DNA of 64,000 nt from Methanobacteriota archaeon. GTDB lineage: Archaea > Thermoplasmatota > Poseidoniia > Poseidoniales > Poseidoniaceae. The notes under the pieces were generated by a model that was not told where the DNA came from, did no database searches, and saw nothing but the letters and a program-made list of their open reading frames with translations. This document shows, piece after piece, positions 3,305-52,770 of the stretch (the stretch's first letter is position 1; each line of letters begins with the position of its first letter). The DNA is taken from contig PBET01000024.1 of the NCBI GenBank assembly GCA_002719815.1, forward strand, positions 3,393 to 67,392. The letters run 5' to 3'. The translations under genes and the position numbers were made by a program.

Positions 3305-4600
3305 TCACTTTGAATGAATCCTTAGAACGTCTCCATCGGAGAGTTCATGTTCAGCCCCAACGATTCGTCGTGTACGTCCATCAACACCTTTGATGAAACC
3401 ATCTCCGAGATCGGAGTGCACTTTGTATGCCACTTGTTTGGCTTGGATACCATTCTGAACCACAAAAGCATCAGGCAATACGTTACCATCCCCATCGGTC
3501 CAATGGGTTTCATCTTGGACAGGATAAACAACAATACGATCGAGTTCCTCAAAAAGAACCTGATCAAGAAGATTGGTCAATCCAGTTCCTTGTAATTTAT
3601 TCAAACGTTCACCAAGAACCGACATGCCTTTCATTTGCGCATCGTTCATCGGCTGATTTTGATTTAATTCAAATGAAGTTGAACCGGGTGTATAGGAAAT
3701 AAATCCTGCCTTGCTCGCTTGACGGAGCGCTAATTCTGTTTCTGCCGAGCACGGTGTAAATTGATCGAGTGTGGCTTGAAGGTGGTCGAGTACACCATCA
3801 GGGGCCATGTCCGCTTTGTTCCCTGCAATAAAGATAGGAAACAACTGCTTCCTCAATGAAGAGGCAAGGAGAATCAGTACATCATCGGACCAATCCCATG
3901 GAGATGTCATGTCGCTATGGAGTTGGGTGAATGCATCAAAGGCGCGTTGACACGTGGAATCTGTTGCTCCCAATCCGGATAGGCGCTCTTGCAGGAATTG
4001 AGTGAATCCCTTCACACCTTCGGCTTGAATTCGACGAGCGCCGCGAGACCAGCCCTCTTTGACAAGCCCTAGAATCCATGCATCAAGTTCCTCTGTAAGG
4101 AAGGTGATTTCTGCAAGTGCTTGTTCAATCGCTTGTTCTTTTGTTGCTTTCAATCCTGTTGGATTTCCTTCAGCATCGGTTGTTCCTGCAACATCAATGA
4201 CCTGAATCAATGCATCGCATTCTGCTAAATCGGACAAGAAAGCATTCCCTCGGCCTCGTCCTTCACTTGCTCCAGGAACCAAGCCTGCAACATCGACCAA
4301 CATGCAAGGAACGTATCGCCTGTGCCCTTCACAAGAGCCTGTGCGTGGTGTGCAGATACTGCCTCCACGATCATCACTGAGTTGGCTACGACCGTCTTGT
4401 TCAAGTCGCTCTCGTAGGGACATACAGGGGCAAGGTTCTCGACTTGGAACAAAGGAAAATCCAACGTTTGGTTCAATCGTACAAAACGGATAATTTGCAA
4501 TATCGACTGGAATCAATGTCGATGCTGCAAAGAAAGTCGATTTGCCGACGTTTGGTTTACCAACCAATCCAATTCGCACGGTTTGACCGCCTCGCTTCAC
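3305..4600 (-). CDS. Obg/YchF-family GTP-binding protein (archaeal Ygr210-like) with C-terminal TGS domain
   Basis: G1 GLVGKPNVGKSTFF, G2 NYPFCTIEPNVG, C-terminal TGS-like GDVLRIHSK; 4-bp overlap with upstream membrane/EF-hand gene. Confidence 0.8.
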   Translation of the reverse strand: MKRGGQTVRIGLVGKPNVGKSTFFAASTLIPVDIANYPFCTIEPNVGFSFVPSREPCPCMSLRERLEQDGRSQLSDDRGGSICTPRTGSCEGHRRYVPCMLVDVAGLVPGASEGRGRGNAFLSDLAECDALIQVIDVAGTTDAEGNPTGLKATKEQAIEQALAEITFLTEELDAWILGLVKEGWSRGARRIQAEGVKGFTQFLQERLSGLGATDSTCQRAFDAFTQLHSDMTSPWDWSDDVLILLASSLRKQLFPIFIAGNKADMAPDGVLDHLQATLDQFTPCSAETELALRQASKAGFISYTPGSTSFELNQNQPMNDAQMKGMSVLGERLNKLQGTGLTNLLDQVLFEELDRIVVYPVQDETHWTDGDGNVLPDAFVVQNGIQAKQVAYKVHSDLGDGFIKGVDGRTRRIVGAEHELSDGDVLRIHSK

Positions 4601-6558
4601 TCTTCTTCGACGACACCAGAGCGTACTCGTGCAATGGCGATGTCAAGTTCTGGGAGGTTGACTCGACCGTCTCCGTCAAGATCGATGAATTCCATGAGAC
4701 GTGCGATATCCCATGGAGGCAAATCTGCAATGTCTGTACTTCGTAGTGCCTGCTGGAGTTCATAGCCATCGATAAGGCCAGAGTCATCCAAATCGATTGA
4801 ACGGAAGAATTCAAAGATGCTCATGTCCTTCTTTGCGAGATAGTCTGACAGCATCTCAAGTTCATTCTTTTCAACTGGGAATTCATCAACTTCATCGTTG
4901 TGGAGGGTTGATGAAACTTCGATAATGGTCATTCCGCCATCGTCTTCAACATCGGCTCCAACGACCAAAACGGTATCGACACCAACGCCGCGTTGCAAGA
5001 GCTTTCGAATCGAAGATTCACCACGTTGCATGGAATAACGACTGATGTCCGAGGTTGTCGAAACGGTTGTATCGACTTTCATTCCTCCAATGGATGTTCG
5101 AATGAGATTCAAGAACAAGAGAATGACACCAATCGAAGCGAAGTAGAAGAGAACGGATGCGGTTAAACTGAATCCACCATCTGTCATGACCACGTCTTCA
5201 CTACCGGAATCGAGAAGTGCTTTTTCGGTGAAGTCACCCATCAACTTCGCAACTGTCGAAGTGACGGCACCAAAGGCGATGAGCATGGTTGACAGGGATG
5301 CAGATGATGAGGATGCGAGTTTACGGCCGCCTGCTAATGGATAGGATTCTGCGACACAGGCGACGGCCATAAGTCCGCCAACAGTCCACATGAAACCAAC
5401 ATCAACGGTTGTGGCCATGTCATTCAGTGCGCCAAGGCCAATGAACACGTCAAGTGAAGTGAAGTATCCTCCAATTGCATACAGTGGGAAGAAGACCATT
5501 GCAAGCGTTGCCGCTAATGCGCCTGGTCGAGATACAACACCTGTTGCATTGCCAAGCGAGGTCATGATGATGTTCACCGAACCTGCCATAATTGGCAAGA
5601 GGGCAAGCGTCATGAGGATGGCCCCGAGATTCTCGAGGAGTGTCCCAGCATCAGCCGATGATAGCATGAATGGAGGCAAGGTGAAGAAGAGAAGAAGAAG
5701 GCTTGCCTTCGTCATTGAATCGGACCAAATCGGGCGACTTGCTGCTCGAGGAACTACGTGATATGCAACCGAGAAGATAAGGGCGATAAGCGCCCAAGAT
5801 TGTGTCATTCGCTCTCCGAGCCAAACTGTTTGGGTTGAGTCAGCCAGTTCCCCAAAGAATCGGAATTGTGAACCGAAGATGAACGATGCAAGAGCCATGA
5901 ACATGAACCAGTTGCTTGCTGAGATGATGTCGCCCTTTCGTTGTGCCACTGTTAGGAGAACGTTGATCATCACTGCAATGATGATAAATGAGCGCAATGC
6001 ATGCATGAAGAGGTCTTGAATAAGGGCTTCATTTGCGGCTGTTAAATCGATAACAAGGCCAAGGATTGTTGGTAGAAGCATCGATGAAATGGTGAGGACT
6101 GAAAACAACAATCCAGTCAAACTGGCATTGGCTTCGCTTGCGAGACGGCCTGCTCCTGCTCGTGCTGCAGCAACCAAGCCACCGCCGACGAGAATCGAAA
6201 TTAGACCAGTCATCAAGGTCACATCAACGAATGTAGCCAACGCGCTTCCATCGTCATATTCCCATCCAATGCTTGCGAGCGAATCGAGGGCTGTAGCATC
6301 ATAATCGTGCCATAGTGCGAGGAATGTGCCGATTGCTGCAAAAGTTAGCCAGATCATTCCAAGGTTCATCCACGTCTTCGATCCACTTCCTTTGTCATCG
6401 TTGAAGAGATCAACAATTCCAGCTGGTGCTTTGTTGAGCAGAAAAAGGCCAAATTGACGCATCGGTTCGGCCATGTTTCCAATCCCACGTTGAAGATAGA
6501 ACGTAGCAAAACCAACCACCGTGAAGAAGAAGAAAAGTGCGATAAATACTGCATCCAT
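4597..6558 (-). CDS. Polytopic membrane protein (>=10 predicted TM) with C-terminal cytoplasmic pair of canonical EF-hand Ca2+-binding loops
   Basis: Loops DLDDSGLIDGYE and DLDGDGRVNLPE fit the 12-residue EF-hand consensus (D1,D3,S/D5,x7,D/N9,E12); long hydrophobic N-terminal region. Confidence 0.6.
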   Translation of the reverse strand: MDAVFIALFFFFTVVGFATFYLQRGIGNMAEPMRQFGLFLLNKAPAGIVDLFNDDKGSGSKTWMNLGMIWLTFAAIGTFLALWHDYDATALDSLASIGWEYDDGSALATFVDVTLMTGLISILVGGGLVAAARAGAGRLASEANASLTGLLFSVLTISSMLLPTILGLVIDLTAANEALIQDLFMHALRSFIIIAVMINVLLTVAQRKGDIISASNWFMFMALASFIFGSQFRFFGELADSTQTVWLGERMTQSWALIALIFSVAYHVVPRAASRPIWSDSMTKASLLLLFFTLPPFMLSSADAGTLLENLGAILMTLALLPIMAGSVNIIMTSLGNATGVVSRPGALAATLAMVFFPLYAIGGYFTSLDVFIGLGALNDMATTVDVGFMWTVGGLMAVACVAESYPLAGGRKLASSSSASLSTMLIAFGAVTSTVAKLMGDFTEKALLDSGSEDVVMTDGGFSLTASVLFYFASIGVILLFLNLIRTSIGGMKVDTTVSTTSDISRYSMQRGESSIRKLLQRGVGVDTVLVVGADVEDDGGMTIIEVSSTLHNDEVDEFPVEKNELEMLSDYLAKKDMSIFEFFRSIDLDDSGLIDGYELQQALRSTDIADLPPWDIARLMEFIDLDGDGRVNLPELDIAIARVRSGVVEEE

Positions 6559-9897: not shown

Positions 9898-11778
9898 CTA
9901 GAATTTCTTTTTAGGACCACCAGGGAATAACCAGCGACTGGATTTTTCAGACGTTGCTTTGTCTTCGCTCTTCTCATATTTTTCCCTTCTAAAGAATATG
10001 AGCGATAGGAGGGCAATGATTGCTATTGCTGCAATCATGAGGTACATTGTGTTGGCATCGAGAGAGGATGCTTCTTCTGAGCGCGTGCCATCATTCGGGT
10101 ATGCATCCGTGTTATCCCCAACGCCATCGCCATCGGTATCGGTTGTTTCAGATGCATCATTTGGAAACGCATCAAGAGAATCCACTGTTCCATCGCCATC
10201 GGAATCTCTTTCGATTATTTCAATCGCATTCTCAACAACAATTGTTTCTCGGATACCGCCAATTTTCAGCAACGTTATTTGGAGATCGTACATCGACATT
10301 TCTGCGAATTCTGGTGCCTGAATCTCAACCTTCCATACACTATTTTCCGAGGCAGTGACTCTACCGCGTAAGTCTGATTCATCTTCCCAATCGCCTTGAG
10401 GTGCTGGACCCGCCACTGAGGCGAATGGAGCGATGTTGTAATCGATTGGTTGAGGCGTGTTTTTGTCGCTTCCTGAACCAATTCCTAATGGTCCATATTT
10501 ACCGCGACCCCAGCACGATACCGACCCGTTTTCATACAGACCACAGACATGGTCATAATTCACGCTCAAATCAACGATGTTTGTTGGCCCTTCAACGAAC
10601 ATTGGTGTAAGATAAATACCGCCAGTGACACCAATCCCAAGGCGGCCAAAGTGATTGTGCCCCCAACAGTATAGACTACTGTTTTCTAAGATAGCACACG
10701 AACTATGTGGGCCTACTGAAACCGATACTGCTGATGAACTGTCTGGCAATTGAGCATAGACTGGAATGAGTCGATTGGTGGTAGTATTCTCTCCAAGTTG
10801 ACCATAATTGTTCAAACCCCAGCAAGTGATTGAGCCGTTGTCAAGTAGAGCACATGAATGATGGTCTCCAACAGAAAGATCTGTCGCAGCGCGCCCTTCA
10901 GGTAACTCGACATTTGAAGACGGGGTATGAATCGTATCGCTCGTATCGCCATTTCCAAGTTGACCCACATTGTCACGGCCCCAGCACATAACGCCTCCAT
11001 CGTCAAGAAGTATACAGGTGTGTGTTGCTCCAGGCTCGACTTTCACAACTTTCCGATCCGATGGAGTCGTAATTGTTTGAGGCGTGTATTTGTCGCTTGT
11101 ATCCAAATTTCCGTTTCCTAAAGCTCCATATGAGTCAAGACCCCAGCAGGTCAAGTTGTCATCTTCTAAGATTGCACACGTGTGCTTAAGTCCCATACCG
11201 ATTGATTTCACACCCTTACCATCTGGAAATTGTACCTTCACGCTGGGAGATTTGTAGGTATTGGTTGAGTCATCACCGGCCTGCCCGTCTTCATTGAATC
11301 CCCAACAACTTGCAGAGTTGTCATCGAAAATGATGCACGTTCGCAATTGTCTCGCATAAATCTGGTCTACGCTTTGACCTTCAGCAATTGAAACGAACGA
11401 AGTAGGCTTATTCAAATTCGTTGCATCGCCACCATCGCCAAGTTGACCATAATTATCGAGCCCCCAACACATAGCTGAGCCATTTTCAAGGATTGCACAA
11501 CTATGCGAGTTTCCAGTGGCAAGTACAGATGAATGTGCTTTAGAAGCCATCGTATCCACTGAGACGAATTCATAACGAATTGTCGAGATACCAACATAAT
11601 CACTGAGATCAATGCTACATTCCATTGACTCGGCTTGGTTTACGTTAGCCTTCGGGCAATCTAATTCGAGTGATGTGCTTTCTTCAGCAATTGTTTGAAT
11701 AGGAACTAGAAGCAGAATTACAAGACAAATTCCTGCCTGAAGGTGAAGCAACCTGCCTCTCGACGGGGTTTTGACCAT
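9898..11778 (-). CDS. Secreted RCC1/BLIP-II repeat (beta-propeller) surface protein with thrombospondin-type-3-like Ca-binding repeats and C-terminal TM anchor
   Basis: Signal peptide; repeated CWG.N.YGQLG motifs (>=7); DSDGDGTVDSLDAFPND...DTDGDGVGDNTDAYPND; C-terminal hydrophobic helix plus basic tail. Confidence 0.7.
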   Translation of the reverse strand: MVKTPSRGRLLHLQAGICLVILLLVPIQTIAEESTSLELDCPKANVNQAESMECSIDLSDYVGISTIRYEFVSVDTMASKAHSSVLATGNSHSCAILENGSAMCWGLDNYGQLGDGGDATNLNKPTSFVSIAEGQSVDQIYARQLRTCIIFDDNSASCWGFNEDGQAGDDSTNTYKSPSVKVQFPDGKGVKSIGMGLKHTCAILEDDNLTCWGLDSYGALGNGNLDTSDKYTPQTITTPSDRKVVKVEPGATHTCILLDDGGVMCWGRDNVGQLGNGDTSDTIHTPSSNVELPEGRAATDLSVGDHHSCALLDNGSITCWGLNNYGQLGENTTTNRLIPVYAQLPDSSSAVSVSVGPHSSCAILENSSLYCWGHNHFGRLGIGVTGGIYLTPMFVEGPTNIVDLSVNYDHVCGLYENGSVSCWGRGKYGPLGIGSGSDKNTPQPIDYNIAPFASVAGPAPQGDWEDESDLRGRVTASENSVWKVEIQAPEFAEMSMYDLQITLLKIGGIRETIVVENAIEIIERDSDGDGTVDSLDAFPNDASETTDTDGDGVGDNTDAYPNDGTRSEEASSLDANTMYLMIAAIAIIALLSLIFFRREKYEKSEDKATSEKSSRWLFPGGPKKKF

Positions 11779-12818: not shown

Positions 12819-13499
12819 ATGGGGATGATGTTGCTTTCGATGCCTTTTTTCGACGGATGCCATCGTCGATACATGAAGCAGGCAACAGACGTCTTCAACG
12901 ATTGGGCACACCGAGGCAAAGACGAGGGTATGGAACGTGGACACAGTCCTGCTGTCAATGAAATGTTGGAGGTTGCTTTCCAACGAGTCAATCAAGGAAA
13001 TCAACCCTTTTCATTCGCTGATTTAGGATGTGGAAATGGCTGGGTTGTACGATTGGTTGGTGGGCATGAGAACTGCATGCGAGCTGATGGTTTTGATGGT
13101 GCACCGCACATGATTGAGAAGGCAAACAACATTGATTCGAAACATGGTTATCATCTTGCTCTGTTTCCTGATACACAACCTCCTCAACAATACGATTTCA
13201 TTCATTCAATGGAATTCATTTACTACCTTCATGAACCTCAACAGATGCTACAATCAATTCACGACGATTGGTTGGCCGATGGAGGTTGGGCTGTAATTGG
13301 AATCGATCATTATGCGGAACATGAGGAAAGTCTTGGTTGGCCAGAAGCCCTCGATGTACATATGTCGACATTTACAGAGCAGGAATGGATTGCAATGTGG
13401 AATGACGTTGGATTTACTGAAATTCATGCGTGGAGAGCAAACCAATCCGAAGGAAAACCAGGAACACTCGCCATCATTGGGAAGAAAAATCAGAATTGA
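12819..13499 (+). CDS. Class I SAM-dependent methyltransferase
   Basis: Motif I FADLGCGNGWVV; divergent from pip; true start may be an internal Met. Confidence 0.6.
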   Translation: MGMMLLSMPFFDGCHRRYMKQATDVFNDWAHRGKDEGMERGHSPAVNEMLEVAFQRVNQGNQPFSFADLGCGNGWVVRLVGGHENCMRADGFDGAPHMIEKANNIDSKHGYHLALFPDTQPPQQYDFIHSMEFIYYLHEPQQMLQSIHDDWLADGGWAVIGIDHYAEHEESLGWPEALDVHMSTFTEQEWIAMWNDVGFTEIHAWRANQSEGKPGTLAIIGKKNQN

Positions 13500-16400
13500 T
13501 CCCCAACTCAAGGCCCTGTGGTGCACACATTCGTACATCGCCATTGAAAAATGGACACTTTTTGCAGATATCAATCGCTTCCATTGGTAAGCGCTTCGGT
13601 TCGGTAACACCGTTTGAATCTGCAGTAAGGGTTGCCATCCAATGCAGGAGATTCATCAGTTCTTCTTCTGCTTCTTTGCACATCTTATCCGGCATTTGAA
13701 CAAGACGTCCCGTCGTGGCGATCAAGAGTGCTGGTGGCCGAATATCTCGTCTCTTTTCAATGGGTTTTCGTTCTTCTTGCTCACGCAAAACCAATGAATA
13801 AAGCATCAGTTGCAAACGATGATTTCGTAGCATCTGAACCTCCGCTTGGTTTTGTGGTTCAAACGAGAGCGGTTCATTCAGCGTCTCGTACAACGGGTGC
13901 AGTTCGAGTTCTTCCTCTCGCGCACCTGTTGTTTTCAAATCAATAACCTGCAACCAAGCCTGTTGATCTTCACATCCTGCAACCACAAGATCTGCCTGCC
14001 CTTCAAAGAGAACATTGACCGCATCAATCACTGTTCGAAATGACTGGTCAAGTTCTGTGAGTGGTGTTCTCAAACGACCTTTCAGGTCGATTTGTTGATT
14101 GAAAGAAAACGACAACTCCGTTCGCAACCCTTCGATTTCATGGCCATGAATCGCTTGACCTTCGACCATTTTTCCTAAAGCTCCATTTGATAGTCGTTTG
14201 GCCAAATCAATGATTCGTTGCCTCGTTTGCTTCTGTTCATCGCTGGACAATCGATGCCACTCGGGTTGTGATTGCGTTGCATCATCGATTTCCTTATCCG
14301 ATAACAGGTGGTTTTGTTGAGCATTCAACCAAACTTGTCCTAATTCAAAGCCTGTTGTCTTCATTTCTGCTGGATTTGCAATTCCAATTTCAACGAGTCT
14401 GTGGAACATCGATCCAAAGGCAGTTGCCGATGGCCAGCCGACAGAATTAGCCGTTACATCTTCCCCATCGGACCGATCTTTAGTATCCTCCTCACTCGAT
14501 TCGAACTTCGTTTCTTGATGGAGTTTGAAAGGCTCAGATTGCCAGCCTCGTACATGCGACAACCAATAGCGTCGTCGGCAGGAATGGGCCGTATCTAAGC
14601 CATGGGCTGTCATCTTTAACGTCGGGGTTTGATAAACAACGGCTTGTTCAATCTCACTGTCATCTGTCGCTTGTTCAACGAGTTGTTCCATGTTCAGCCA
14701 GTTGGAAAGTACGGAAGTTGGTGATTGTTCGGCAAAGCAATCAGGATGGTGATACATACGCAAGCTCTGTAGCGAATCTTGCATAAATCCACTCGACGTA
14801 TACAACGCATAGGGATCAAACTTCAACGTCTGCTCGCCATATTCTGCTAAACGTTCTCCTTGAACATCGTTGGTAAGACTCCAAGGCTGTTCATCGCCTG
14901 ATGCCAATCCCATGTATCGGAAACCTTCAAGCATCAAATCGCCCATGTTGTTCCCTTTTGCATTCACCTTCATCTCAACCATTGCATCATCACTCAACAA
15001 GCAAGGAGCATTTGGCGAGCCAACGAAGATCAAGCGATCTTTCACCCTGGTAAGTGCAACATAGAATTGACGACGCAATTCAGCTTGATTTTGTGCCTTG
15101 TTCATTTGTTCAGCCAACATCCACAAGGCATCTTCAGGCTTCTCTTTCGACTTCCATGGCTGAATACGGCCTGCAATTACATCTGGTGTAATCAAGACAT
15201 TGTTCTGAGCTTCAATGCTTGAACTGCGACGTCCTGCTTCAAACAATCCTGTGACGATCACAACCGGCGCTTGGAGACCTTTTGCCCCATGAATTGTCAT
15301 GATCTGAATCGCGCCACTTGTTGGTAAAGAACGGGCTTGGGGACCTTTGTTCCCAAGTGTTCCGAACGCCTTCATCTGATCAAGGATCGAGGCGGGTTCG
15401 TGTCCTGATTCACCACCTAATTTTTGCAACATTGCGTACCATGTTTCAGCAACTTGTCGTTCAGATTCATCTGGGAATGCGATGAGGAGATCGCTGTAAT
15501 CCAAGACAGCATCAAAGATTTCGTACATGGCGCCAGAATGTACCAAACGAGCGCATGCTTCCATGAGTGGCCCTTGAGGTTCGCCATCAAAATAGTCGGA
15601 AAAGAAGTGCCAATAATTGTCCACATCCTTCGTTTGGAAAATCTCCTCAATCTGTATGGATGATGCCCCAATAATTGAGGAACGAAGGACGGAATGGGCG
15701 GCATGTCTTGACCCTGGTCGTGCGAGAAGTTCCAACATAGCCATCAACGGTTGAACGACGGGTTGCTTGAGCAACTCACCTTGTTTATCAGCCATAACCG
15801 GCAATCCACGAGCTTGGAGTCGTGCGATTAAGTCGGGAATGTGCTTTCGTGAGTGGACGAGAATCATCACATCTTCAGGCAGAATTGGCTCTTCTGGTTC
15901 TACTTCAACAAAATCTTCCGCTTCTGTTGACCATATCCGAGTTGGTGAGCCTCGAACCAAGGCATCCAATCGAGAAGCGATAAGTTCATGTTCCAAATGA
16001 CGGAGATTTGCATTTCCTGCATCGAACAAGTTGTACCCTTGTGTAAGGCCAAGTGGTAGTTCCTCGGTATCGTTTTGAGTCGGAAGAAGCCACTCGATTG
16101 TCCCTATGCGTTCCGTATCTCGTCCAGATTCTAAGGGCTGAGCAGTTGCATGGAAATCGCCTGGGAATTGGTGATGCCGATGATTAAACGTGTCATCAAA
16201 CATATTGTTGAGCGTTTGAAGTAGGCCAGGTGCTGTTCGGAAATTCGTTCTCAGTTGAATATGGCCTTCGGCTCGTTCAACGATTGTATCATCATCGATG
16301 GCGAGACCTGCGTCGTCAATTCCATAGGAAACGTAGTCGTACGGAGCTGATTTCTCATCTCGGGAATAATCAGCGGCGGAGATGAATGAACCAGATTCAC

Positions 16401-18447
16401 CACCTGCGCCGACGGGCCGAGGATCTCGGCCGTGCCCTTCTTGAGTAAAAGTCTCCATCCGTTTCTCATTAGCCTCGATCTGGTTCGCTACACGAATGGA
16501 TGCAACCATTCGACGCATAACCGTAACCTCAGCCTGACGGAATCGGTAGATGCTTTGCTTCATATCACCAACAATGCAGATGGTTGGGTCCCAGGGACCT
16601 GCTGGTTCAGGGTGTTCTTCGGAAATGCCCTCTCTTCGCCCCCAAAGTCGCGAAAGGAGACGAGCATGTTCTGGATTCGTATCCTGATACTCGTCGATAA
16701 TGAAGGCTCGATATCGTGCACGAATTTGCTTTAATAGCGCAAATCTTCGTTGAAGATCAACGTATTTCTCTTCATCACGTTGCATAATGGTCAGTGCTCT
16801 TCGAATATGTTCATCCGACCATGGCTCATCACCAAGGTCATCCAATGCCTGGACAGCCTCGGGCGGATACCAATGACGAACGATGGCTGGACAGCGAACA
16901 AGGAGTAAATCGCCGACCATGACTTGAACATCGTCAAAATCATGCGCTTCTTCTTGTGCCTTCAAGTGACGAAGTAAATCCTGACAGCCTGAATGAACTG
17001 TATACAAATCGTTCAGAACTTCAACCTGAAGGTCACTAGAAACCCTCTGCATACCAGATGGTGGTTCGGTACCCAACGAAACGCCCAGTGGATGGCGGTC
17101 GTATTTTTCATTCGCATCTCGATGGACAAAAGGCCGTACAGGATTGAGGCAGTAGGCAACTTTTGCAAGCATCAACACCAGACGCCCATCACTTGGGTCA
17201 TGAATCCGGTTTTGCAAACGAGTTGCAGCCTTGGAAGCATCTTTCATGAGTTGTTCCTTGGTTGCCTCCTCAGATTTACGCTTGAAGACTGATGACCACG
17301 TCATCAAGCCTGAAGGCCAGTCTGCTAGCGTATTTGCTCGGGGGAAGTGCCCGTCCTTGAGAATGGTTGGTGCTGGCTCCTTCAACTGTGCATGCGATGC
17401 GGCCGCTGCAACCACCTGGTACAACCACTGAAGTTGTTCTATCGGAGTTGTAGGCAGTGCTTCCCGTGCCAAATGAGCGAGTTGATTGAAACGAGTATTT
17501 GTTGTAGCAACTTGCGCTGGAGCGACAATCACAGAATGATGTTCGAGGAAAACATCAACCCATTCGTTAAGGAATGCATGTACATCTTGAACGACCGGAG
17601 TGATAAGGTGGTGACACTCCTGTAAAATCATGTCCTCAATAAGTCGGTAATCTGGAGGTGTGTCACCATCCCATGGTAAACCAGTTCGAATCGAACGTGA
17701 GCGAAGCCGTCGCTTAGATTCCTCGACAAATAGCGACGATTCTAGCAATCCTTCCAATGCCGTTTGTGCACTTGCTTGACCTCCAAGCCGGATTGCGAGA
17801 CGATTGCGGGCAGCGATGAAAGCATCAGCTGATTGAAGCATGCCCGCTTCGATTGCATCGCGAGCATTTCGTATACGCCAAGCCGCATTCAATGCTTGAC
17901 TTCTCAAAAGAGGGGCTTTTTCTTCAGGAAGTTGTTCTCGACTGACGTGGATTGCTACGAGATCGATATGCGGTGAGAGAATTTCCGACAGGAACGCATC
18001 GATGGTCGATATTGGTGATGATTCAAGCAACGACATCAGCATCGAAACATCGCCTTGGTGACGCAGACGTGGGTCATGCATCCCCATTCGGTCATCGTCT
18101 TTTACAGGATGAGCACGAAGCGATTGAATCCTTTGTCGAATTCTTGACCGCAGTTCAGATGCCGCCTTTCGAGTGAAGGTAATCGCGACGATTTCTTGTG
18201 GCAACAGTCCTTTCCATTCATTCAATGGAGTGCGATCTTTCTTTGCTGCGAGAACGTGGCCTGCACCATACTGTTCCAACCGAATTGGTGGCGGCAAAAC
18301 ATGCGTAGCTCGTTGCTCTGCTGAAAGAAGATGCTGAACATATCGTTCAGCCATAACGGTGGTTTTACCTGTTCCAGCACCAGCATCCAATGCGATGTGT
18401 TGATCGAGATTAAGACCCAGTCGCTGACTTCTGTTGAAGGAAATCAC
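13474..18447 (-). CDS. addA: AddA-like UvrD-family helicase with C-terminal 4-Cys PD-(D/E)XK nuclease domain (1657 aa)
   Basis: Helicase motifs I AGAGTGKTT, Ia FTRKAASELRSRI, II IDEYQDTN, III GDMKQSIYRFRQA, IV NFRTAPG, V TIHGAKGLQAPVVIV, VI YVALTRVKDRLIFV. C-terminal nuclease VIDLKTTG and Cys ligands ...HSCRRRY... CKKCPFFNGDVRMC. GTG start overlaps stop of upstream addB-like (GTGA). Confidence 0.75.
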   Translation of the reverse strand: MISFNRSQRLGLNLDQHIALDAGAGTGKTTVMAERYVQHLLSAEQRATHVLPPPIRLEQYGAGHVLAAKKDRTPLNEWKGLLPQEIVAITFTRKAASELRSRIRQRIQSLRAHPVKDDDRMGMHDPRLRHQGDVSMLMSLLESSPISTIDAFLSEILSPHIDLVAIHVSREQLPEEKAPLLRSQALNAAWRIRNARDAIEAGMLQSADAFIAARNRLAIRLGGQASAQTALEGLLESSLFVEESKRRLRSRSIRTGLPWDGDTPPDYRLIEDMILQECHHLITPVVQDVHAFLNEWVDVFLEHHSVIVAPAQVATTNTRFNQLAHLAREALPTTPIEQLQWLYQVVAAAASHAQLKEPAPTILKDGHFPRANTLADWPSGLMTWSSVFKRKSEEATKEQLMKDASKAATRLQNRIHDPSDGRLVLMLAKVAYCLNPVRPFVHRDANEKYDRHPLGVSLGTEPPSGMQRVSSDLQVEVLNDLYTVHSGCQDLLRHLKAQEEAHDFDDVQVMVGDLLLVRCPAIVRHWYPPEAVQALDDLGDEPWSDEHIRRALTIMQRDEEKYVDLQRRFALLKQIRARYRAFIIDEYQDTNPEHARLLSRLWGRREGISEEHPEPAGPWDPTICIVGDMKQSIYRFRQAEVTVMRRMVASIRVANQIEANEKRMETFTQEGHGRDPRPVGAGGESGSFISAADYSRDEKSAPYDYVSYGIDDAGLAIDDDTIVERAEGHIQLRTNFRTAPGLLQTLNNMFDDTFNHRHHQFPGDFHATAQPLESGRDTERIGTIEWLLPTQNDTEELPLGLTQGYNLFDAGNANLRHLEHELIASRLDALVRGSPTRIWSTEAEDFVEVEPEEPILPEDVMILVHSRKHIPDLIARLQARGLPVMADKQGELLKQPVVQPLMAMLELLARPGSRHAAHSVLRSSIIGASSIQIEEIFQTKDVDNYWHFFSDYFDGEPQGPLMEACARLVHSGAMYEIFDAVLDYSDLLIAFPDESERQVAETWYAMLQKLGGESGHEPASILDQMKAFGTLGNKGPQARSLPTSGAIQIMTIHGAKGLQAPVVIVTGLFEAGRRSSSIEAQNNVLITPDVIAGRIQPWKSKEKPEDALWMLAEQMNKAQNQAELRRQFYVALTRVKDRLIFVGSPNAPCLLSDDAMVEMKVNAKGNNMGDLMLEGFRYMGLASGDEQPWSLTNDVQGERLAEYGEQTLKFDPYALYTSSGFMQDSLQSLRMYHHPDCFAEQSPTSVLSNWLNMEQLVEQATDDSEIEQAVVYQTPTLKMTAHGLDTAHSCRRRYWLSHVRGWQSEPFKLHQETKFESSEEDTKDRSDGEDVTANSVGWPSATAFGSMFHRLVEIGIANPAEMKTTGFELGQVWLNAQQNHLLSDKEIDDATQSQPEWHRLSSDEQKQTRQRIIDLAKRLSNGALGKMVEGQAIHGHEIEGLRTELSFSFNQQIDLKGRLRTPLTELDQSFRTVIDAVNVLFEGQADLVVAGCEDQQAWLQVIDLKTTGAREEELELHPLYETLNEPLSFEPQNQAEVQMLRNHRLQLMLYSLVLREQEERKPIEKRRDIRPPALLIATTGRLVQMPDKMCKEAEEELMNLLHWMATLTADSNGVTEPKRLPMEAIDICKKCPFFNGDVRMCAPQGLELGINSDFSSQ

Positions 18448-21400
18448 TTTGTTTCACCTCCAATGGATGCAGAAGAGCACGCACTTGCGAGTGAACAATA
18501 CTTGCAGTGATCTCCTGGTGCAGGATGATTCCAGCCGAGTTCACTTGCATCCTGTGCCCGGATTGCGGCAGTAATTCTTGAACTCATCCACGCCCGGAAA
18601 CTGTTACTCTCCGGTGTTGTTCCTTCAGTTGGTATACGGAAATGATTTCCAGAGTAAAACGTTCGAGTTCCGATGGTTCGGCTTTCCTCAAGAAAAGCAA
18701 AACTCGGATCGAGTTCAAGGAGATGTTCCGTATCATCGCCCACTTCTGAGATACCAACGCCAATGACGCGATCGCCTGGATGTGCTAATTCCCAAGCACG
18801 AGCATAGAGTGCTAATTGAATCTCCTTGAAGAGGCCCGCGACATGTCGAATGCCATCTTCACCAGGTTTTGGTCCTTCGATGGTTTTGAGGTCTCGAATG
18901 ATGATGAAGCGCTTCGCAGGAGGTCCACTTCCATCAAAGAAAAGTGGCATCCCTTCTGCGCTCTCATCATAGAGCCCACGCTCGGTTAGTCGTTCAAGGA
19001 GCGATTCATCGAGAACAAGGTGATCAACGCGATCAATTCGCCCACGTAACTTGATGCATGAGGTTTCAAATTGATCATCAAACCCTTCGATTTCTACACT
19101 CAACTCCGTTCCATGTTGCAACGCCCATTCACTGGCAATTGGTGCTGCTGAGGTCAGGTTGAGATCTGCTAAAAGTAGACGTCCGAGTCGCCCTCCAATC
19201 GGAAGCGTTCCGTTGCCTTCAAGCCAATCGTTCCAATCTTCAGGCGAGCAGCCAATCAAATCATTGCAGCGATGAACGGAAACTGCATTTGTTCTCGATA
19301 ACCAGGGAGCGATTTCAGACAAATGCCAGAGCAAACTTTCCCATATTTCTTGGTTTGATAGTGAAGTTCCTTGATGCATTGGCGTACCTTCGGCCAGTGG
19401 CGTCCCTCCTACTTCAATTCCAAGAAGTGTCATGAGATGTTCCTCAATGGCATGAACCAACGTTCCTTTTGTGAGTGGCGCAATGTCTTCAGAGGGCTCG
19501 GGAGTGTTGTCCGTGGCATCGAGTGTCTGTTCAGACCATGCTTGTCGGGGGCAAGTCAGCCAAGGTGTTAATCGGCTTGTTGACCATGTCTTTGATTCCG
19601 TTTCGATCGGTTGACTGGAAAGAATTTCGTTCAGGCTTGGTGAACCATACGTAGGCGGAGGAAGCGGACGAGGGTCGAGTGAAGGCCCCCTCGAATTGCC
19701 ATTCTTCTTGTATCCGAGATGCGGATAGGATGCTGAGGTTCGACCACCACTCACCTCGGCTTGAGAGACCGTGGGTTCGATGACAAGGCCCGTTGTTGTG
19801 AGCAAGCTCTCCCGTATCTCCCATGGCAGAATGCTTCCATTTGCAAGTGGCTTGAATTTTGGTTGGCGACGATAGCGATCGAGATGCACATCGCGTTCAA
19901 ATCGATTCGCTATGGTATTCGCTGACTGAATCGTTCCACTCGGAGTCCGCAACGCTTTCAATTCAAGACCAGTCTGTTGTTGCAGATCTCGTTGCATGTT
20001 CTCTGCTCGTTCAAGTTCCACTTCACCACCGTTCACAGATAATGAAGAAGTTCGATATGTCAGCCAATTTCCTGTTTCTCGAGTCACAATTGACCATCCA
20101 GCACCATCAGAAACTTCTTCCTGCAGGAACGCTGGAATGGCCGCAAGATTCCGTAAATCACCTTGCAGTTCAACGCCTGAAAGGTACTCGACAACCGGTG
20201 TCGAATTACCCGCAGATTCATCATGTTCGGTATCGAAGAGGATCACTTGTTGGCTTGAATTTAGCACAGATTTGAAGAGATGACGCGCCTGACGAACGGG
20301 TAAGTCTCCATCATTCAAGCCTAATTCGACTCGAACAGAATCGTCAATCCAAGGCACTCGCTCAGGCTTCATCGACCATGACTCAGCATCAATTCCAACG
20401 AAGAGAGTGAGGTCCGATGCTACCCCAAACGCTTGCTTTGGTGTACAGATATGTACATCGAAATGACGAACTCGATTCATAGGTAGTTTGGTTTGATCGG
20501 CTGCTAACCGACAAAAATCAATGAATGGAAGACTCGACTGATATTGGAGCAAACCATCAACGGATCGGACCCATGATTGCACGGCACCTACGGAGGCATC
20601 GTAATGCCGTGTACGTTCAAACAACGCCTCCCAGTCACATGCATGTAAAATTGTGCTGAGTACGTCTCGTGGCGTTTTACTTGGCTCGGGCAAGGGTAGA
20701 GAAATGTTTGATGACGCGCCAACGAATGGATTCGCAAGGAAGTTTTTCTCGGTTTCATCGAGTAACGCAGTCCATGATGTTGCAAGGCATTGCAACCACC
20801 ACTGCGTCTCCTCAATCGCTCGCAATTCTTCCTCACGACGATAGGCTTCAACAGCATATGGTTTTGCAACAGCTAAAGAGCCAAGCCACCGTTGGAGCGC
20901 TCCTTTTCCGCCAAGAACGTGGAAACTGCGGCCGATGTTTTCAATCACGTCCAAGTGTGGCCTTGGCCGCCAATCCTTCTTTTCTGGATGGGTCAAATCG
21001 GAAAACAATTTGCCAATAATCGGGAACGCCTTTGACTGGGCGATATCGAACAGTTTAGCTGTTGACCATGCATCTTGGCCATTGGGAATTGACAGAAATC
21101 GAAGTATTGCTTGTATAGCAGAGGTACTTCCAACTGAATCTGCTTGAGTATCGCATGTAATTCCAATGCGCTGCAGACGGCGAATCCATTCCTTGTGGCG
21201 GCCCTTGTCGGCATCGATGAGAAGAATACGTCCTTGTTCATGCTTGTTGAAATGATTGATGACTGAAATTGCGGCATCTGGAATCTGCGAGGCTCGGTCG
21301 AAACTCAGTAAGTGGATTCCTTCTGTCGCGTAATCAGCGTTACCGGATGCTGGAGGCAGAACGGTATGACGTGGGACCCATTCTGGCAGTTGGTCATCGC

Positions 21401-22148
21401 GTTCCAAAAGCGGTAGTTCATCATCGATGTATGCTCCATGAAATCCGAGACGGAATGAGCCTGTGACACAAAGATGATGGATTGGGCTTCGCACTGATAA
21501 GGCCTTGAGAAACTGCTTCTCATCTTCATGAAAGTCAGGCGGATGGTTGAGAAGGAGGATACCACGAATTGCTCCAAGCGTGTAAGGCGTTGGAACATTC
21601 AAATCGGCGAGTGCTGAACAAATTCGGGCGATGACGTGGTGCTCATGCAGAAGATTTTCGTTTTCAAACGATGAAAGAATCCGATCTGCTTCAAATGCGC
21701 CGGGATCTTCTTCCCACGTCGAAAGGATACCATGTTTTGTTGCATACGCATGGAGAGAAAGCAAACGCTCTGATTTTGAAAGTGTCCATGGCCTGGTCAC
21801 GTCGGGATGGAGGCGAGGAAAACGATGATCTTGCGCTGCAGAGGCAAACTTTTCGTGAACTTGTACAAGACCAGTCGATGTTCTTGGCACAAGAACAGGT
21901 AGTCGGAGATCGATCGTTAAGGACTTCAAGAGTCGTTGAAGCGTTGTGTGTCTGCTTGAATCAACAGAGCCCGCTTTCTGAAGAATGGCCTGGATAGACG
22001 AGGACCGAGTGACTTCATTCGGATAGATGACCAATAAATCGTCCCGTCCTGTTGCAATTTCATCCACAACCCAGGACGGGACGGTCGTATCGAAAGGGCA
22101 TGACTCTACTGTGATGTTCTCAGCCATATCCTCCCCACCCATCTTCAT
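18444..22148 (-). CDS. addB: AddB-like subunit: helicase-like scaffold without obvious Walker A, plus C-terminal Cas4/AddB-type 4-Cys PD-(D/E)XK nuclease (1234 aa)
   Basis: C-terminal ...GDHCKYCSLASACSSAS Cys cluster; size and position upstream of addA-like as in the Bacillus addB-addA operon; no GxxxxGK[ST] found by eye. Confidence 0.55.
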   Translation of the reverse strand: MKMGGEDMAENITVESCPFDTTVPSWVVDEIATGRDDLLVIYPNEVTRSSSIQAILQKAGSVDSSRHTTLQRLLKSLTIDLRLPVLVPRTSTGLVQVHEKFASAAQDHRFPRLHPDVTRPWTLSKSERLLSLHAYATKHGILSTWEEDPGAFEADRILSSFENENLLHEHHVIARICSALADLNVPTPYTLGAIRGILLLNHPPDFHEDEKQFLKALSVRSPIHHLCVTGSFRLGFHGAYIDDELPLLERDDQLPEWVPRHTVLPPASGNADYATEGIHLLSFDRASQIPDAAISVINHFNKHEQGRILLIDADKGRHKEWIRRLQRIGITCDTQADSVGSTSAIQAILRFLSIPNGQDAWSTAKLFDIAQSKAFPIIGKLFSDLTHPEKKDWRPRPHLDVIENIGRSFHVLGGKGALQRWLGSLAVAKPYAVEAYRREEELRAIEETQWWLQCLATSWTALLDETEKNFLANPFVGASSNISLPLPEPSKTPRDVLSTILHACDWEALFERTRHYDASVGAVQSWVRSVDGLLQYQSSLPFIDFCRLAADQTKLPMNRVRHFDVHICTPKQAFGVASDLTLFVGIDAESWSMKPERVPWIDDSVRVELGLNDGDLPVRQARHLFKSVLNSSQQVILFDTEHDESAGNSTPVVEYLSGVELQGDLRNLAAIPAFLQEEVSDGAGWSIVTRETGNWLTYRTSSLSVNGGEVELERAENMQRDLQQQTGLELKALRTPSGTIQSANTIANRFERDVHLDRYRRQPKFKPLANGSILPWEIRESLLTTTGLVIEPTVSQAEVSGGRTSASYPHLGYKKNGNSRGPSLDPRPLPPPTYGSPSLNEILSSQPIETESKTWSTSRLTPWLTCPRQAWSEQTLDATDNTPEPSEDIAPLTKGTLVHAIEEHLMTLLGIEVGGTPLAEGTPMHQGTSLSNQEIWESLLWHLSEIAPWLSRTNAVSVHRCNDLIGCSPEDWNDWLEGNGTLPIGGRLGRLLLADLNLTSAAPIASEWALQHGTELSVEIEGFDDQFETSCIKLRGRIDRVDHLVLDESLLERLTERGLYDESAEGMPLFFDGSGPPAKRFIIIRDLKTIEGPKPGEDGIRHVAGLFKEIQLALYARAWELAHPGDRVIGVGISEVGDDTEHLLELDPSFAFLEESRTIGTRTFYSGNHFRIPTEGTTPESNSFRAWMSSRITAAIRAQDASELGWNHPAPGDHCKYCSLASACSSASIGGETK

Positions 22149-22240
22149 GCGTGGCGACAGTATAAAACTGAACGTTCAAAATTTTGTTATTTTTTGTAGG
22201 GTGTTGGCATTTTTCATCGATTCTGAGGTGGATGTCGGAT

Positions 22241-22293
22241 AACATGAATTGTAACATGAATAATTCATGTTTTGTATAATTCAGAACATGAAT
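22241..22293. promoter_or_regulatory. Candidate operator: three direct copies of AACATGAAT (22241-22249, 22253-22261, 22285-22293), the middle one part of a perfect 17-bp palindrome ACATGAAT-A-ATTCATGT (22254-22270)
   Basis: Read directly in the AT-rich divergent intergenic region between the addB-like gene (-) and the TFB-like gene (+). Confidence 0.4.
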
Positions 22294-22300
22294 CGTTGGA

Positions 22301-22308
22301 TTTAAATA
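22301..22308 (+). promoter_or_regulatory. Archaeal TATA-box candidate TTTAAATA upstream of the TFB-like gene; GGAGG Shine-Dalgarno at 22410-22414
   Basis: Matches TTTAWATA consensus; ~114 bp upstream of the ATG at 22422, implying a ~85-nt leader; SD 7 nt from ATG. Confidence 0.3.
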
Positions 22309-22421
22309 GTACGGCGTCCATAAAGATACTCCAGCGCGTCGGTCCGAGCCCAATCCCACTTATTCCACCAACCCCTCGGACTTAATCATGTTGGAACAAA
22401 CAAGAACAAGGAGGACAAAAT

Positions 22422-23495
22422 ATGACGAAAAAGTGTGAAGAATGTGGCAGTTATGACTTGAAAGCGGACAACATCCGAGGCGAGGTGGTTTGCAACGATT
22501 GTGGACTTGTCATCGAGGATCAAGCCTCGGCGACCCAAAACGACAATGCAGGAACAATGTGGGGCGAAAATGCATCCAACACTCCGACCAAAGATGAAGC
22601 CAAGATTAAGACTGGCTCGAAGGGTAATGCGCTTGGTTCCTACATCGGTAAGCCAAATGAAGCGAAGGGCAAGTGGAAAATCCTACGACACCTGCACGCT
22701 CGAGATGTCAAGGACCTGCACCCAATGGCGCAAGCTACGATGGATGCTGCAAAGGAGTTGGCTGGCAAGGACAACGCCATGAAGGCGAAGAAAGTCATCA
22801 CCCTAGCGACCGTTCCACTCGATGATGAGAAAGCGAAGGCGTTGCGAGAAATCGCTGATGAGGAGGAAATCATCCTTCCAAAGAACTCTGTTTGCCGAAA
22901 GAAAACCCGAGGGGGAAGCACCCAGAACAACGAGAAGTTGCTTGCGCTGGGTTGTCTGCGAGCACATCAGGAGCGAACTGGCAAAATCAACATCGATTGG
23001 CCCCAGATGGTTGAAGGCACTGGTTTGACCATGGCTCAGGTTGTTGATGCTGCAAAAGTCATCATGAAGTACCTTAATCTATGCGAGAAAGCGCATCTTA
23101 TCGAAGAGCGAGCAGACCGAAGAACTGTTCATCTCGAGTTGCGAAACACCGAAATCGAGAACACTACGCTTCGACTGAAGCAACTTCTCGAAGATGTTGA
23201 TGAATCCGTGAAGACGCAAATCATGGACGATTACAAGCAACGACTCTTCACCTTGGGTGAGCCGACATTAGGCGGTTCACCGTTCTCAAGCGAGAACATT
23301 GAGGCCAAGGTCCTCTGCGCAATTCTCTTCCAAATCTCATGCGAGTCCTTTGGTGTTGAACAAGGACGGCTCGAGAACATCGCTCATGCGATTGGTCGAT
23401 GTCGAAACACCATCAAGAACCGCCTCAAGTCCCTTCGAAAGAAGGTGGCGTCTGGTGAGCTGGTTGACTTTGGTGTCTTGCAGAAGAAGCACTGA
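22422..23495 (+). CDS. Divergent TFIIB/TFB-like protein: canonical N-terminal Zn ribbon and two cyclin-like repeats, but lysine-rich linker lacking the usual B-reader (GPEWRAF) signature
   Basis: KKCEECGSYDLKADNIRGEVVCNDCGLVIEDQ; cyclin-like LLALGCLRAHQERTGKINIDWPQMVEGTGLTMAQVVDAAKVIMKYL and AKVLCAILFQISCESFGVEQGRLENIAHAIGRCRNTIKNRLKSL; basic composition in an acidic proteome. Confidence 0.6.
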   Translation: MTKKCEECGSYDLKADNIRGEVVCNDCGLVIEDQASATQNDNAGTMWGENASNTPTKDEAKIKTGSKGNALGSYIGKPNEAKGKWKILRHLHARDVKDLHPMAQATMDAAKELAGKDNAMKAKKVITLATVPLDDEKAKALREIADEEEIILPKNSVCRKKTRGGSTQNNEKLLALGCLRAHQERTGKINIDWPQMVEGTGLTMAQVVDAAKVIMKYLNLCEKAHLIEERADRRTVHLELRNTEIENTTLRLKQLLEDVDESVKTQIMDDYKQRLFTLGEPTLGGSPFSSENIEAKVLCAILFQISCESFGVEQGRLENIAHAIGRCRNTIKNRLKSLRKKVASGELVDFGVLQKKH

Positions 23496-51942: not shown

Positions 51943-52770
51943 TTGGTTGTGAATATGGAACTTCTTGAAGGCGAACGGGTGCTCGCTTTCGACTTGGAAA
52001 CGACCGGTATTAGCACCTCAAGAGACCGTATTGTTCAGTTAGCGCTCATTGGCTCAGATGTTGATGGAGCTGAAATTTCATACGATCGATTGGTCAATCC
52101 ACGTCGACCGATTCCCTACGATTCGCAACGAATTCACGGTATTTCAGATGCAGACGTTCGAGGAGAGCCTGATTTTGCACAAATAGCTGACAAAGTATCA
52201 GAATTGATTGAAGGTTGCGTCCTTATCGGCCACAACGTTCGCCAATTCGACTTACCAATGCTAAGGAATGAATTTCTTCGTATTGGAGCGTTACCTCCAG
52301 AACCGAAGGCAGTACTCGATACGCTCGAGATGGTTCGTCGACTAAAATTACCCCGTCCGCATCGGTTGGGTGCACAATGCAATCGACATGGCATTTCGCT
52401 TGAAAATGCCCACACTGCATCTGCAGACGCTGCTGCATCATTGCTTCTACTTTGGAAATTGGGACTCGATCATCCAAGTTATTTTCGAAAATCACTGAAG
52501 GAAGTCGAACAGTGGTGTGCAACTGGTTCAACTGCAAAAGCCCAATCCGATCTTGGACCACAACTCGATGATTTGGAAGTCGTCGATTCGAACGGGATGG
52601 TACGCCGAGATGGAGAACATATGGTCCTCGCTGTAGGTCGCCATCGTGGACGTCATTTGGAAGAGTTGAATGATCTTGATCCTCGTTACTTGGACTGGTT
52701 GCTTTCACCGAATGGCATTGATGATTCTGAAGCCGTTGAGGCGATTAAGGCATACCTGAATCAGCAATAG
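51943..52770 (+). CDS. DEDDh 3'-5' exonuclease (DnaQ/epsilon-like) with ~100-aa C-terminal extension
   Basis: Exo I VLAFDLETTG, Exo II LIGHNVRQFDLPML, Exo III HTASADAAA. Confidence 0.75.
   Translation: MVVNMELLEGERVLAFDLETTGISTSRDRIVQLALIGSDVDGAEISYDRLVNPRRPIPYDSQRIHGISDADVRGEPDFAQIADKVSELIEGCVLIGHNVRQFDLPMLRNEFLRIGALPPEPKAVLDTLEMVRRLKLPRPHRLGAQCNRHGISLENAHTASADAAASLLLLWKLGLDHPSYFRKSLKEVEQWCATGSTAKAQSDLGPQLDDLEVVDSNGMVRRDGEHMVLAVGRHRGRHLEELNDLDPRYLDWLLSPNGIDDSEAVEAIKAYLNQQ

Follow-up and report, generated by a model that had tools for sequence, protein, structure and literature searches.

Within a 64,000-nt stretch of the Poseidoniaceae contig PBET01000024.1 (assembly GCA_002719815.1, positions 3,393 to 67,392 of the forward strand; hereafter the window), we found two adjacent genes that most probably encode a very divergent AddAB-type helicase-nuclease, a single-motor, dual-nuclease machine for DNA end resection that would feed the archaeal recombinase RadA. 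Both appear in the list of open reading frames (ORFs) on the minus strand: 18444..22148 (ATG start) encodes an AddB-like subunit of 1234 aa, hereafter the partner, and 13474..18447 (GTG start) encodes an AddA-like helicase-nuclease of 1657 aa, hereafter the motor. In archaea, resection of double-strand breaks is described as the work of Mre11-Rad50 together with HerA-NurA, and a 2021 review of the field does not include AddAB or RecBCD (PMC8708640). The pair is currently named in databases only as "UvrD-helicase domain-containing protein" and "PD-(D/E)XK nuclease family protein".

The two genes overlap by 4 nt (GTGA, 18444-18447), the GTG of the motor occupying 18447-18445 and the TGA of the partner 18446-18444. 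Their junction (18444..18461, minus strand; ...GGAGGTGAAACAAAGTGATTTCC, also given as GGAGGTGAAACAAAGTGATT) carries a Shine-Dalgarno-like GGAGGTGA box at 18454-18461, followed by a 6-nt spacer and the overlapping start and stop codons. Judging from sequence, the true start of the partner may be Met8 (ATG at 22127), because many homologues begin there; a GGGGAGGAT box precedes this codon. In 80 of 81 loci the motor gene follows the partner gene directly and in the same orientation; the exception is a contig that ends 17 bases past the partner. In 62 of these 80 an ATG, TTG or GTG start overlaps the partner stop as NTGA. This is the arrangement of adjacent addB and addA genes in one operon. The original prediction, an earlier annotation made from the letters of the window, had proposed a Bacillus-like gene order with a GTG/TGA overlap, and both hold, the overlap being kept in most relatives; the peptides that it quoted are all in the translations, namely DAGAGTGKT (motif I), IIDEYQDTNPEH (motif II), AHSCRRRYW and CKKCPFFNGDVRMC, with DHCKYCSLASAC in the partner. 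At its 3' end the motor gene converges with that of a SAM (S-adenosylmethionine)-dependent methyltransferase ORF (12819-13499, plus strand), with an overlap of 26 bases.

The motor is recognizable by sequence. Pfam detects UvrD-helicase (1.5e-33), UvrD_C, AAA_19 and PDDEXK_1, and the best NCBIfam models are recB (139 bits), addA_Gpos (137) and addA_alphas (114). Among PDB sequences, a single-sequence search placed the protein closest to AddA (2.6e-15), and a 19-sequence family profile separated the candidates further: AddA (3u44_A) 1.6e-32, UvrD1 1.4e-16, AdnB 6e-16 and RecB ~3e-13. AddA is thus the closest solved structure, in agreement with the proposed AddA-likeness of the long protein. More than 1200 homologues of the motor were found, and among the 120 listed all measure 1640-1667 aa, bar one truncated entry. 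We computed conservation on 19 diverse homologues that are 43-80% identical. Helicase motifs I, Ia, II, III, IV, V and VI do not vary among these homologues, GAGTGKT, FTRKAA, IIDEYQDTNP, VGDMKQSIYRFRQAE, VGDMKQSIYRFR, N735/R737, TIHGAKGL and YVALTR being present in every sequence. Residues 1-1148 (15004..18447, minus strand) therefore constitute a superfamily 1A (SF1A) UvrD-like motor with intact motifs I-VI, as in the A subunit of AddAB, and the full UvrD/AddA motif set that had been read from the window is borne out both by the Pfam matches and by this invariance.

The motor is ~425 aa longer than the AddA chain 3u44_A (1657 against 1232 aa), close to the excess of about 400 aa noticed earlier. 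Alignments with AddA and with an AddA-like protein of haloarchaea, described below, show the extra residues to be distributed over four regions: one separates motifs I and Ia, one is in 1B, one follows motif III and one is in the C-terminal third. The first insertion (residues 42-82) contains invariant Q45, R46, P52, R56, G63, W78 and G80, and the one after motif III (~655-725) contains an invariant GRDPRPxGxG at 673-682. Both of these lineage-specific insertions are also present in a deep relative of the motor (locus L081) that is only 28% identical to it; this protein ranks the NCBIfam models as addA_Gpos (120.6 bits), addA_alphas (113.9) and recB (86.8).

The C-terminal part of the motor is a RecB-family nuclease (13477..14610, minus strand; PDDEXK_1 at residues 1283-1633). 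The catalytic residues D1486, D1503 and K1505 (D1503-x-K1505) and the Q1546-xxx-Y1550 motif are present in 19/19 homologues, so that the D...D/ExK and QxxxY signatures expected in the A subunit of an AddAB are in place. The domain also bears four conserved Cys arranged as C1290...C1628-X2-C1631-X9-C1641, the first three in all 19 homologues and C1641 in 17, and the Cys-bearing C-terminal PD-(D/E)XK nuclease attributed earlier to this protein is therefore real. An AlphaFold (AF2) model of residues 1150-1657 (pLDDT, the predicted local distance difference test, 83.3) has the nuclease modules of Dna2, RecB, AddB and AdnA as its top fold matches. Dna2 is one of the enzymes that carry an iron-sulfur (Fe-S) cluster. 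The nuclease of AddB contains one as well (PMC3321194).

This combination of a UvrD-like SF1 helicase and a Cas4-like nuclease (PF12705) in a single polypeptide is also that of the UvrD-Cas4-like fusions of the pfam12705 branch, which occur in bacteria as well as in mesophilic archaea, for the most part in defence settings, and are tied to Type III restriction-modification (R-M) and Dcm/Vsr loci (Hudaiberdiev et al., 2017; PMC5704561). Because such fusions are known, the Fe-S-type Cys set is unusual for an AddA, as the original prediction had it, but not for helicase-nuclease fusions in general (PMC5704561). The likeness raises the question of whether the main function of the pair is nucleolytic defence against viruses or plasmids, in the manner of these fusions or the GajB protein of Gabija, and not recombinational repair. 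PADLOC GajB models match the motor with up to 68 bits, and the degradation of phage DNA by RecBCD and AddAB is well established. Nevertheless, we regard a primarily defensive role as rather unlikely. The GajB likeness concerns the generic UvrD core and is weaker than the AddA and RecB scores; PADLOC returned no specific defence-system match for the pair and none at all for the partner; and the motor, instead of standing alone or in a Type III R-M, Dcm or Vsr context, is tied by strict pairing and translational coupling to an AddB-like gene among housekeeping neighbours (TFB-like, methyltransferase, hydrolase, MCM and GatE genes), with no R-M, Dcm or other defence genes beside it. Unlike patchy defence islands, the pair is present in 365 species genomes at a chromosomal site of conserved synteny, and no relative of the partner, and so no copy of the system, was detected on the viral contigs of IMG/VR. 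Repair and defence are in any case compatible in AddAB-type enzymes.

The partner is far more elusive. Pfam detects a single domain in it, a C-terminal PDDEXK_1 (1.4e-11), within a RecB/Cas4-type nuclease domain (18447..19601, minus strand) whose four Cys (C866...C1215-X2-C1218-X5-C1224) follow the AddB/Cas4 spacing C...CX2CX5C. Across 25-61 homologues, on which conservation of the partner was computed, no variation is seen in C866, D1039, D1042, D1086, K1088, Q1111, Y1115, C1215 and C1218, and at least 90% retain C1224; the Cas4 structure 4r5q gave a faint match near the first Cys. The C-terminal RecB-family nuclease that characterizes the B subunit of AddAB, with the four Cys that hold an Fe-S cluster in many AddBs, is thus present here, and metal binding is predicted. 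From their Cys sets, the nucleases of both motor and partner are expected to bind Fe-S clusters.

The N-terminal region of the partner (~845 aa; 19614..22148, minus strand) has no match in Pfam, NCBIfam, PADLOC or PDB sequences, the latter searched both with the single sequence and with a 25-sequence profile. In an exhaustive profile search, the N-terminal 845 aa matched 278 proteins among 1.84 billion representatives; the 150 matches listed are full-length proteins near the size of the partner and short fragments, and no annotated bacterial AddB could be identified among the matches, the library carrying no names. Sequence identity between the partner and Bacillus AddB is ~10-12%. Only structure prediction revealed the AddB architecture. 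From an alignment of 61 sequences, AlphaFold gave a confident model of residues 35-1234 (pLDDT 84.8; predicted template modelling score, pTM, 0.65), and this model matched AddB best (3e-19 to 7e-18 for five chains; 0.50-0.57, full length; 16.8 (835)), followed by AdnA (1.6e-14; 0.40/0.50; 16.1 (669)), by UvrD, PcrA and Rep (~1e-9; Rep 14.3, UvrD1 13.0) and by RecC (3.8e-8; 13.0 (738)). These matches identify the N-terminal ~845 residues as an SF1 (UvrD-like) helicase fold, which is without ATPase motifs and corresponds to the inactivated helicase fold at the N-terminus of the AddAB B subunit. This region is a candidate single-stranded DNA (ssDNA) channel or sequence-recognition module.

The absence of a Walker A motif in the partner, claimed in the original prediction, is visible in the model. 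At the place of the GxxxxGK[ST] P-loop, strand 38-42 (LLVIY) is connected to helix 45-59 by P43-N44 only, and the homologue alignment has no conserved Lys in residues 1-100, from which we conclude that Walker A is absent. The partner therefore departs from Bacillus AddB, which keeps Walker A (motif I; PMC3321194). The AddB-likeness proposed for the partner is nonetheless well supported, by the predicted structure and by the intact Cas4/AddB-type 4-Cys nuclease. Two outcomes had been named as incompatible with the original prediction, an AdnAB-type pair in which each subunit has its own ATPase motifs, and a partner that is not AddB-like in architecture; neither was found.

The first of these outcomes deserves a closer look, since the mycobacterial AdnAB (PDB 6PPJ, 7SJR, 9NP6) likewise consists of two UvrD-fold subunits with a RecB-type nuclease each, and its non-motor subunit AdnA, which carries an Fe-S cluster, is the second-best fold match of the partner. 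In an AdnAB-type pair, both UvrD-like subunits would have ATP-binding motifs and a nuclease. AdnA retains its phosphohydrolase motifs and binds nucleotide (PMC13000450), whereas by its motifs the partner does neither: it has no P-loop, no conserved Lys in its first 100 residues and no helicase motif detectable by sequence. Loss of the ATPase site excludes the AdnAB type, whose two subunits each carry Walker motifs, and the family profile of the motor is also much nearer to AddA than to AdnB (1.6e-32 against 6e-16). An AdnAB-type assignment is accordingly very improbable. In the AdnAB literature that we read, an Fe-S cluster is described in AdnA only.

We judge an assignment to the RecBC(D) type, with the partner as a RecC-like, nuclease-dead scaffold and RecD encoded elsewhere, to be slighter still in probability. 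The pair does share with E. coli RecBCD its presumptive job and its modular logic of an SF1A motor with a nuclease and an inactivated helicase-fold subunit, and RecB and RecC are detectable relatives of the two proteins. The similarity is lower than to AddAB, however, with RecC ranking under AddB and AdnA as a fold match, and the nuclease of the partner looks active and has a Cys cluster. The RecBCD type was rejected on this intact nuclease site and on the lack of a recD-like gene adjoining the pair in the window or in L081.

The pair is widespread in one archaeal lineage. When one genome per GTDB species was scanned, 365 genomes proved to contain relatives of the partner; the best 80 of these are essentially all metagenome-assembled genomes (MAGs) of Poseidoniales, including the 2.06-Mb Marine Group II (MG-II, MGII) chromosome CM001443. 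For both proteins, those homologues whose source carries a name are assigned to Candidatus Poseidoniaceae or Poseidoniales. The most distant locus, L081, lies on a 3.0-Mb archaeal contig and encodes a pair of 1164 and 1558 aa with a 4-nt overlap, in the same neighbourhood as in the window (MCM, GatE, PS (phosphatidylserine) decarboxylase and a radical-SAM gene); its GatE is 48% identical to that of the window. Its helicase retains the insertion between motifs I and Ia, the Cys of CRRR(Y/H)W and the CX2CX9C at the C-terminus, which makes these features ancestral to a deep clade. A remote partner protein (P0228) used as a query matched nothing but itself.

We propose that the pair has been passed down vertically throughout the Poseidoniales (Marine Group II), as well as in one or more deeper relatives. 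The original prediction had left two origins open, horizontal acquisition or an undescribed archaeal lineage; the 365 species genomes and the deep relative with its 48% identical GatE favour an old, lineage-wide family, and a recent transfer is unlikely. It is barely credible that this contig is a piece of bacterial DNA placed in the wrong bin, or that the pair was recently inserted from bacteria, even though a few records with the pair are labelled as bacteria. These are contigs in MAGs named Salipiger bermudensis, Rhodobiaceae bacterium and Verrucomicrobiales bacterium (L012, L022, L068), probably products of binning contamination, and the best explanation of their bacterial labels is faulty binning. 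The archaeal nature of the genome, already suspected earlier, is evident from the MCM, GatE, TFIIB-type zinc-ribbon, Trm1 and PAC2 genes and the archaeal-type Obg-like GTPase in the same 64 kb, as well as from the Poseidoniales-named homologues, and it was on these housekeeping genes that bacterial contamination was rejected. GC content is flat over the pair (0.45-0.50), so that the compositional sign of a recent insertion is absent, and the distance of the proteins from every bacterial model rules out a recent transfer; the pair is, besides, in CM001443 and in hundreds of Poseidoniales MAGs.

Taken as an AddAB-type complex, the pair is best compared with Bacillus subtilis AddAB (PDB 3U44, 3U4Q, 4CEH-4CEJ), the closest sequence match of the motor and the closest structural match of the partner. 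In both systems addB precedes addA, the A subunit unites the one active SF1A motor with a RecB-family nuclease, and the B subunit is made of an inactivated SF1 fold and a RecB-family nuclease with four Cys (C...CX2CX5C). They differ in the missing Walker A of the Poseidoniales partner, in the greater length of the motor (~425 aa) with its conserved lineage-specific insertions, and in the host recombinase, which would be RadA and not RecA. Walker A and the Cys cluster are each said to occur in subsets of AddB proteins only. In Bacillus, AddAB has a single 3'->5' SF1A motor, the A nuclease cuts the 3' strand after it has passed the dead helicase domain of the partner, and the Fe-S-stapled nuclease of AddB, at the fork, cuts the 5' strand (PMC3321194).

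Since the anatomy of the Poseidoniales pair maps one-to-one on this enzyme (PMC3321194), we propose that it forms a single-motor, dual-nuclease end-resection complex. By analogy, the heterodimer would bind a double-stranded DNA end, and the single SF1A motor in the 1657-aa subunit would move 3'->5' on the 3'-ended strand and unwind the duplex. On its way to the nuclease of the motor, the 3'-ended strand would thread through the N-terminal region of the 1234-aa subunit, which is helicase-like but ATPase-dead, while the displaced 5' strand would be cut by the nuclease of the 1234-aa subunit. The product would be a 3' single-stranded tail that RadA can use. The complex would incidentally also degrade unprotected linear DNA, for example of viruses, as AddAB and RecBCD do. 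The heterodimer, the assignment of strands to nucleases, the hand-off to RadA and any Chi-like regulation are what we infer from this comparison.

Pairs of AddB- and AddA-like genes are also present in haloarchaea. We found pairs of canonical size on the megaplasmids pHSR-Est01 of Halapricum desulfuricans (L082, 1-9760) and PHS3 of Halobacterium salinarum (L083, 2800-9484); the Halapricum pair (WP_229123132/WP_229123133) adjoins divergent Rad50-like (AAA ATPase, DSB repair) and Mre11-like (DNA repair exonuclease) genes. Like the Poseidoniales pair, these have archaeal hosts, the same gene order and overlapping genes, and the Halapricum B subunit is also without Walker A and with CX2CX5C. Over 700 aa, the Halapricum A subunit and the window helicase share 25% identity (E 3e-33), and hhalign of the partner family against the haloarchaeal AddB-like protein covered the nuclease domain only (92% probability). 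The haloarchaeal proteins are nevertheless of ~1020-1060 and 1210-1240 aa, and the Halapricum pair reaches 340 and 75 bits on the bacterial AddA and AddB models, against 137 and essentially nothing for MGII. They also differ in location, the haloarchaeal pairs being on megaplasmids whereas the MGII pair is chromosomal, lineage-wide and syntenic.

That mesophilic archaea have acquired bacterial repair genes by transfer is familiar. For addAB, Reuter et al. (2010; PMC2887965), citing Cromie (2009), state that transfer "even into the archaea" has been suggested. Archaeal AddAB pairs are therefore not new as such; it is the chromosomal, doubly Cys-bearing version of MGII that is undescribed, and its distinctive traits are a partner diverged beyond sequence recognition, a motor longer by ~425 aa and a 4-Cys set on both subunits. 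In the papers on Marine Group II/Poseidoniales genomics that we searched, we found no mention of the pair.

Several observations weigh against assigning the pair to AddAB. The motor does not reach the equivalog cut-offs of the NCBIfam AddA models (TIGR02785/TIGR02784; 137 against 708 bits and 114 against 861), and among the AddB models (TIGR02773/TIGR02786) the partner scores 11.7 bits with addB_alphas, for a cut-off of 486. By NCBI criteria the pair is therefore no equivalog of either described AddAB subfamily. The check with hidden Markov models suggested along with the original prediction thus gave a divided answer: the long protein does have the UvrD_N/UvrD_C-type and PDDEXK_1 matches, but both proteins lie far under the cut-offs of the AddA and AddB models. 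Bacillus AddA has no 4-Cys nuclease whereas the Poseidoniales motor has one (CX2CX9C), AddA (3u44_A) is not among the top fold matches to the model of the motor nuclease, and the Halapricum A subunit has no C-terminal Cys cluster. The ~425 extra residues of the motor are without an assigned function. Finally, a search for Chi-like 5-8-mers by strand skew and Markov over-representation in the 64-kb window, which is far too small a sample, yielded no Chi-like candidate, only weakly skewed words with an observed/expected ratio of ~1, such as would be explained by the gene-strand (codon/strand) bias of the window.

The partner gene shares a divergent promoter region (22149..22421) with a TFB-like gene. 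This region contains a TATA-like TATTTAAA at ~22301-22308 and, at 22241-22292, a palindrome with half-sites: a perfect 19-bp palindrome AACATGAATTATTCATGTT at 22253-22271 and additional ATTCATGTT half-sites at 22284-22292 and 22241-22249. Four of the nine matches to ATTCATGT/ACATGAAT in the window fall in this intergenic segment. One or two copies of the motif lie 5' of the partner in most close relatives (L001-L025); they are rare in distant relatives, and L081 has none. From its sequence, the palindrome cluster is a candidate operator for a regulator. The divergent gene (22422-23495, plus strand) encodes a 357-aa protein whose sole detectable similarity is an N-terminal TFIIB-type zinc ribbon; it scores 27.7 bits on an NCBIfam TFIIB subfamily model with a cut-off of 384, and no cyclin-like core repeats were detected. 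It may be a divergent TFB paralogue.

Other genes of the window are related to DNA processing or contain uncommon domains. A complete NAD-dependent DNA ligase of the bacterial LigA type, with adenylation, OB, HhH and BRCT domains, is encoded at 58829-60949 (minus strand) and is the second bacterial-type DNA-repair/replication enzyme in the window. A stand-alone PDDEXK_1/Cas4-like nuclease of 410 aa (52745-53977, minus strand; Pfam 2.5e-21), with weak Cas4 and DruK matches, is convergent with a DEDDh (RNase T/DnaQ-like) exonuclease gene (51943-52770, plus strand), the ends of the two genes overlapping. Two minus-strand genes encode domains more typical of eukaryotes: an RCC1-repeat beta-propeller of 626 aa (9898-11778) and a 653-aa protein that ends in an EF-hand pair (4597-6558).

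In a wider reading, which we advance only tentatively, the Poseidoniales and their relatives would hold a deep-branching, undescribed archaeal lineage of AddAB, with Fe-S-stapled nucleases on both subunits and a motor with lineage-specific insertions. It would serve as the main long-range end-resection machine, replacing the role of HerA-NurA, would deliver 3' tails to RadA in place of RecA, and would possibly respond to a Chi-like signal of its own.

The recognition of an AddAB-type pair among the conserved chromosomal genes of these archaea departs from the textbook view of archaeal resection. It concerns a group that ranks among the most abundant archaea of surface seawater, a setting with much DNA damage by UV and oxidation. 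If the complex is active, a bacterial-type resection machine must work there with the eukaryote-like RadA and an RPA-type single-stranded DNA-binding protein. The pair also widens the structural range of AddAB, with a partner whose N-terminal domain is past sequence detection and yet keeps the AddB fold, and a motor whose nuclease has an iron-staple-type Cys set. It offers a natural comparison for the contributions of the Fe-S module and of the dead helicase domain, and its database annotation could be improved.

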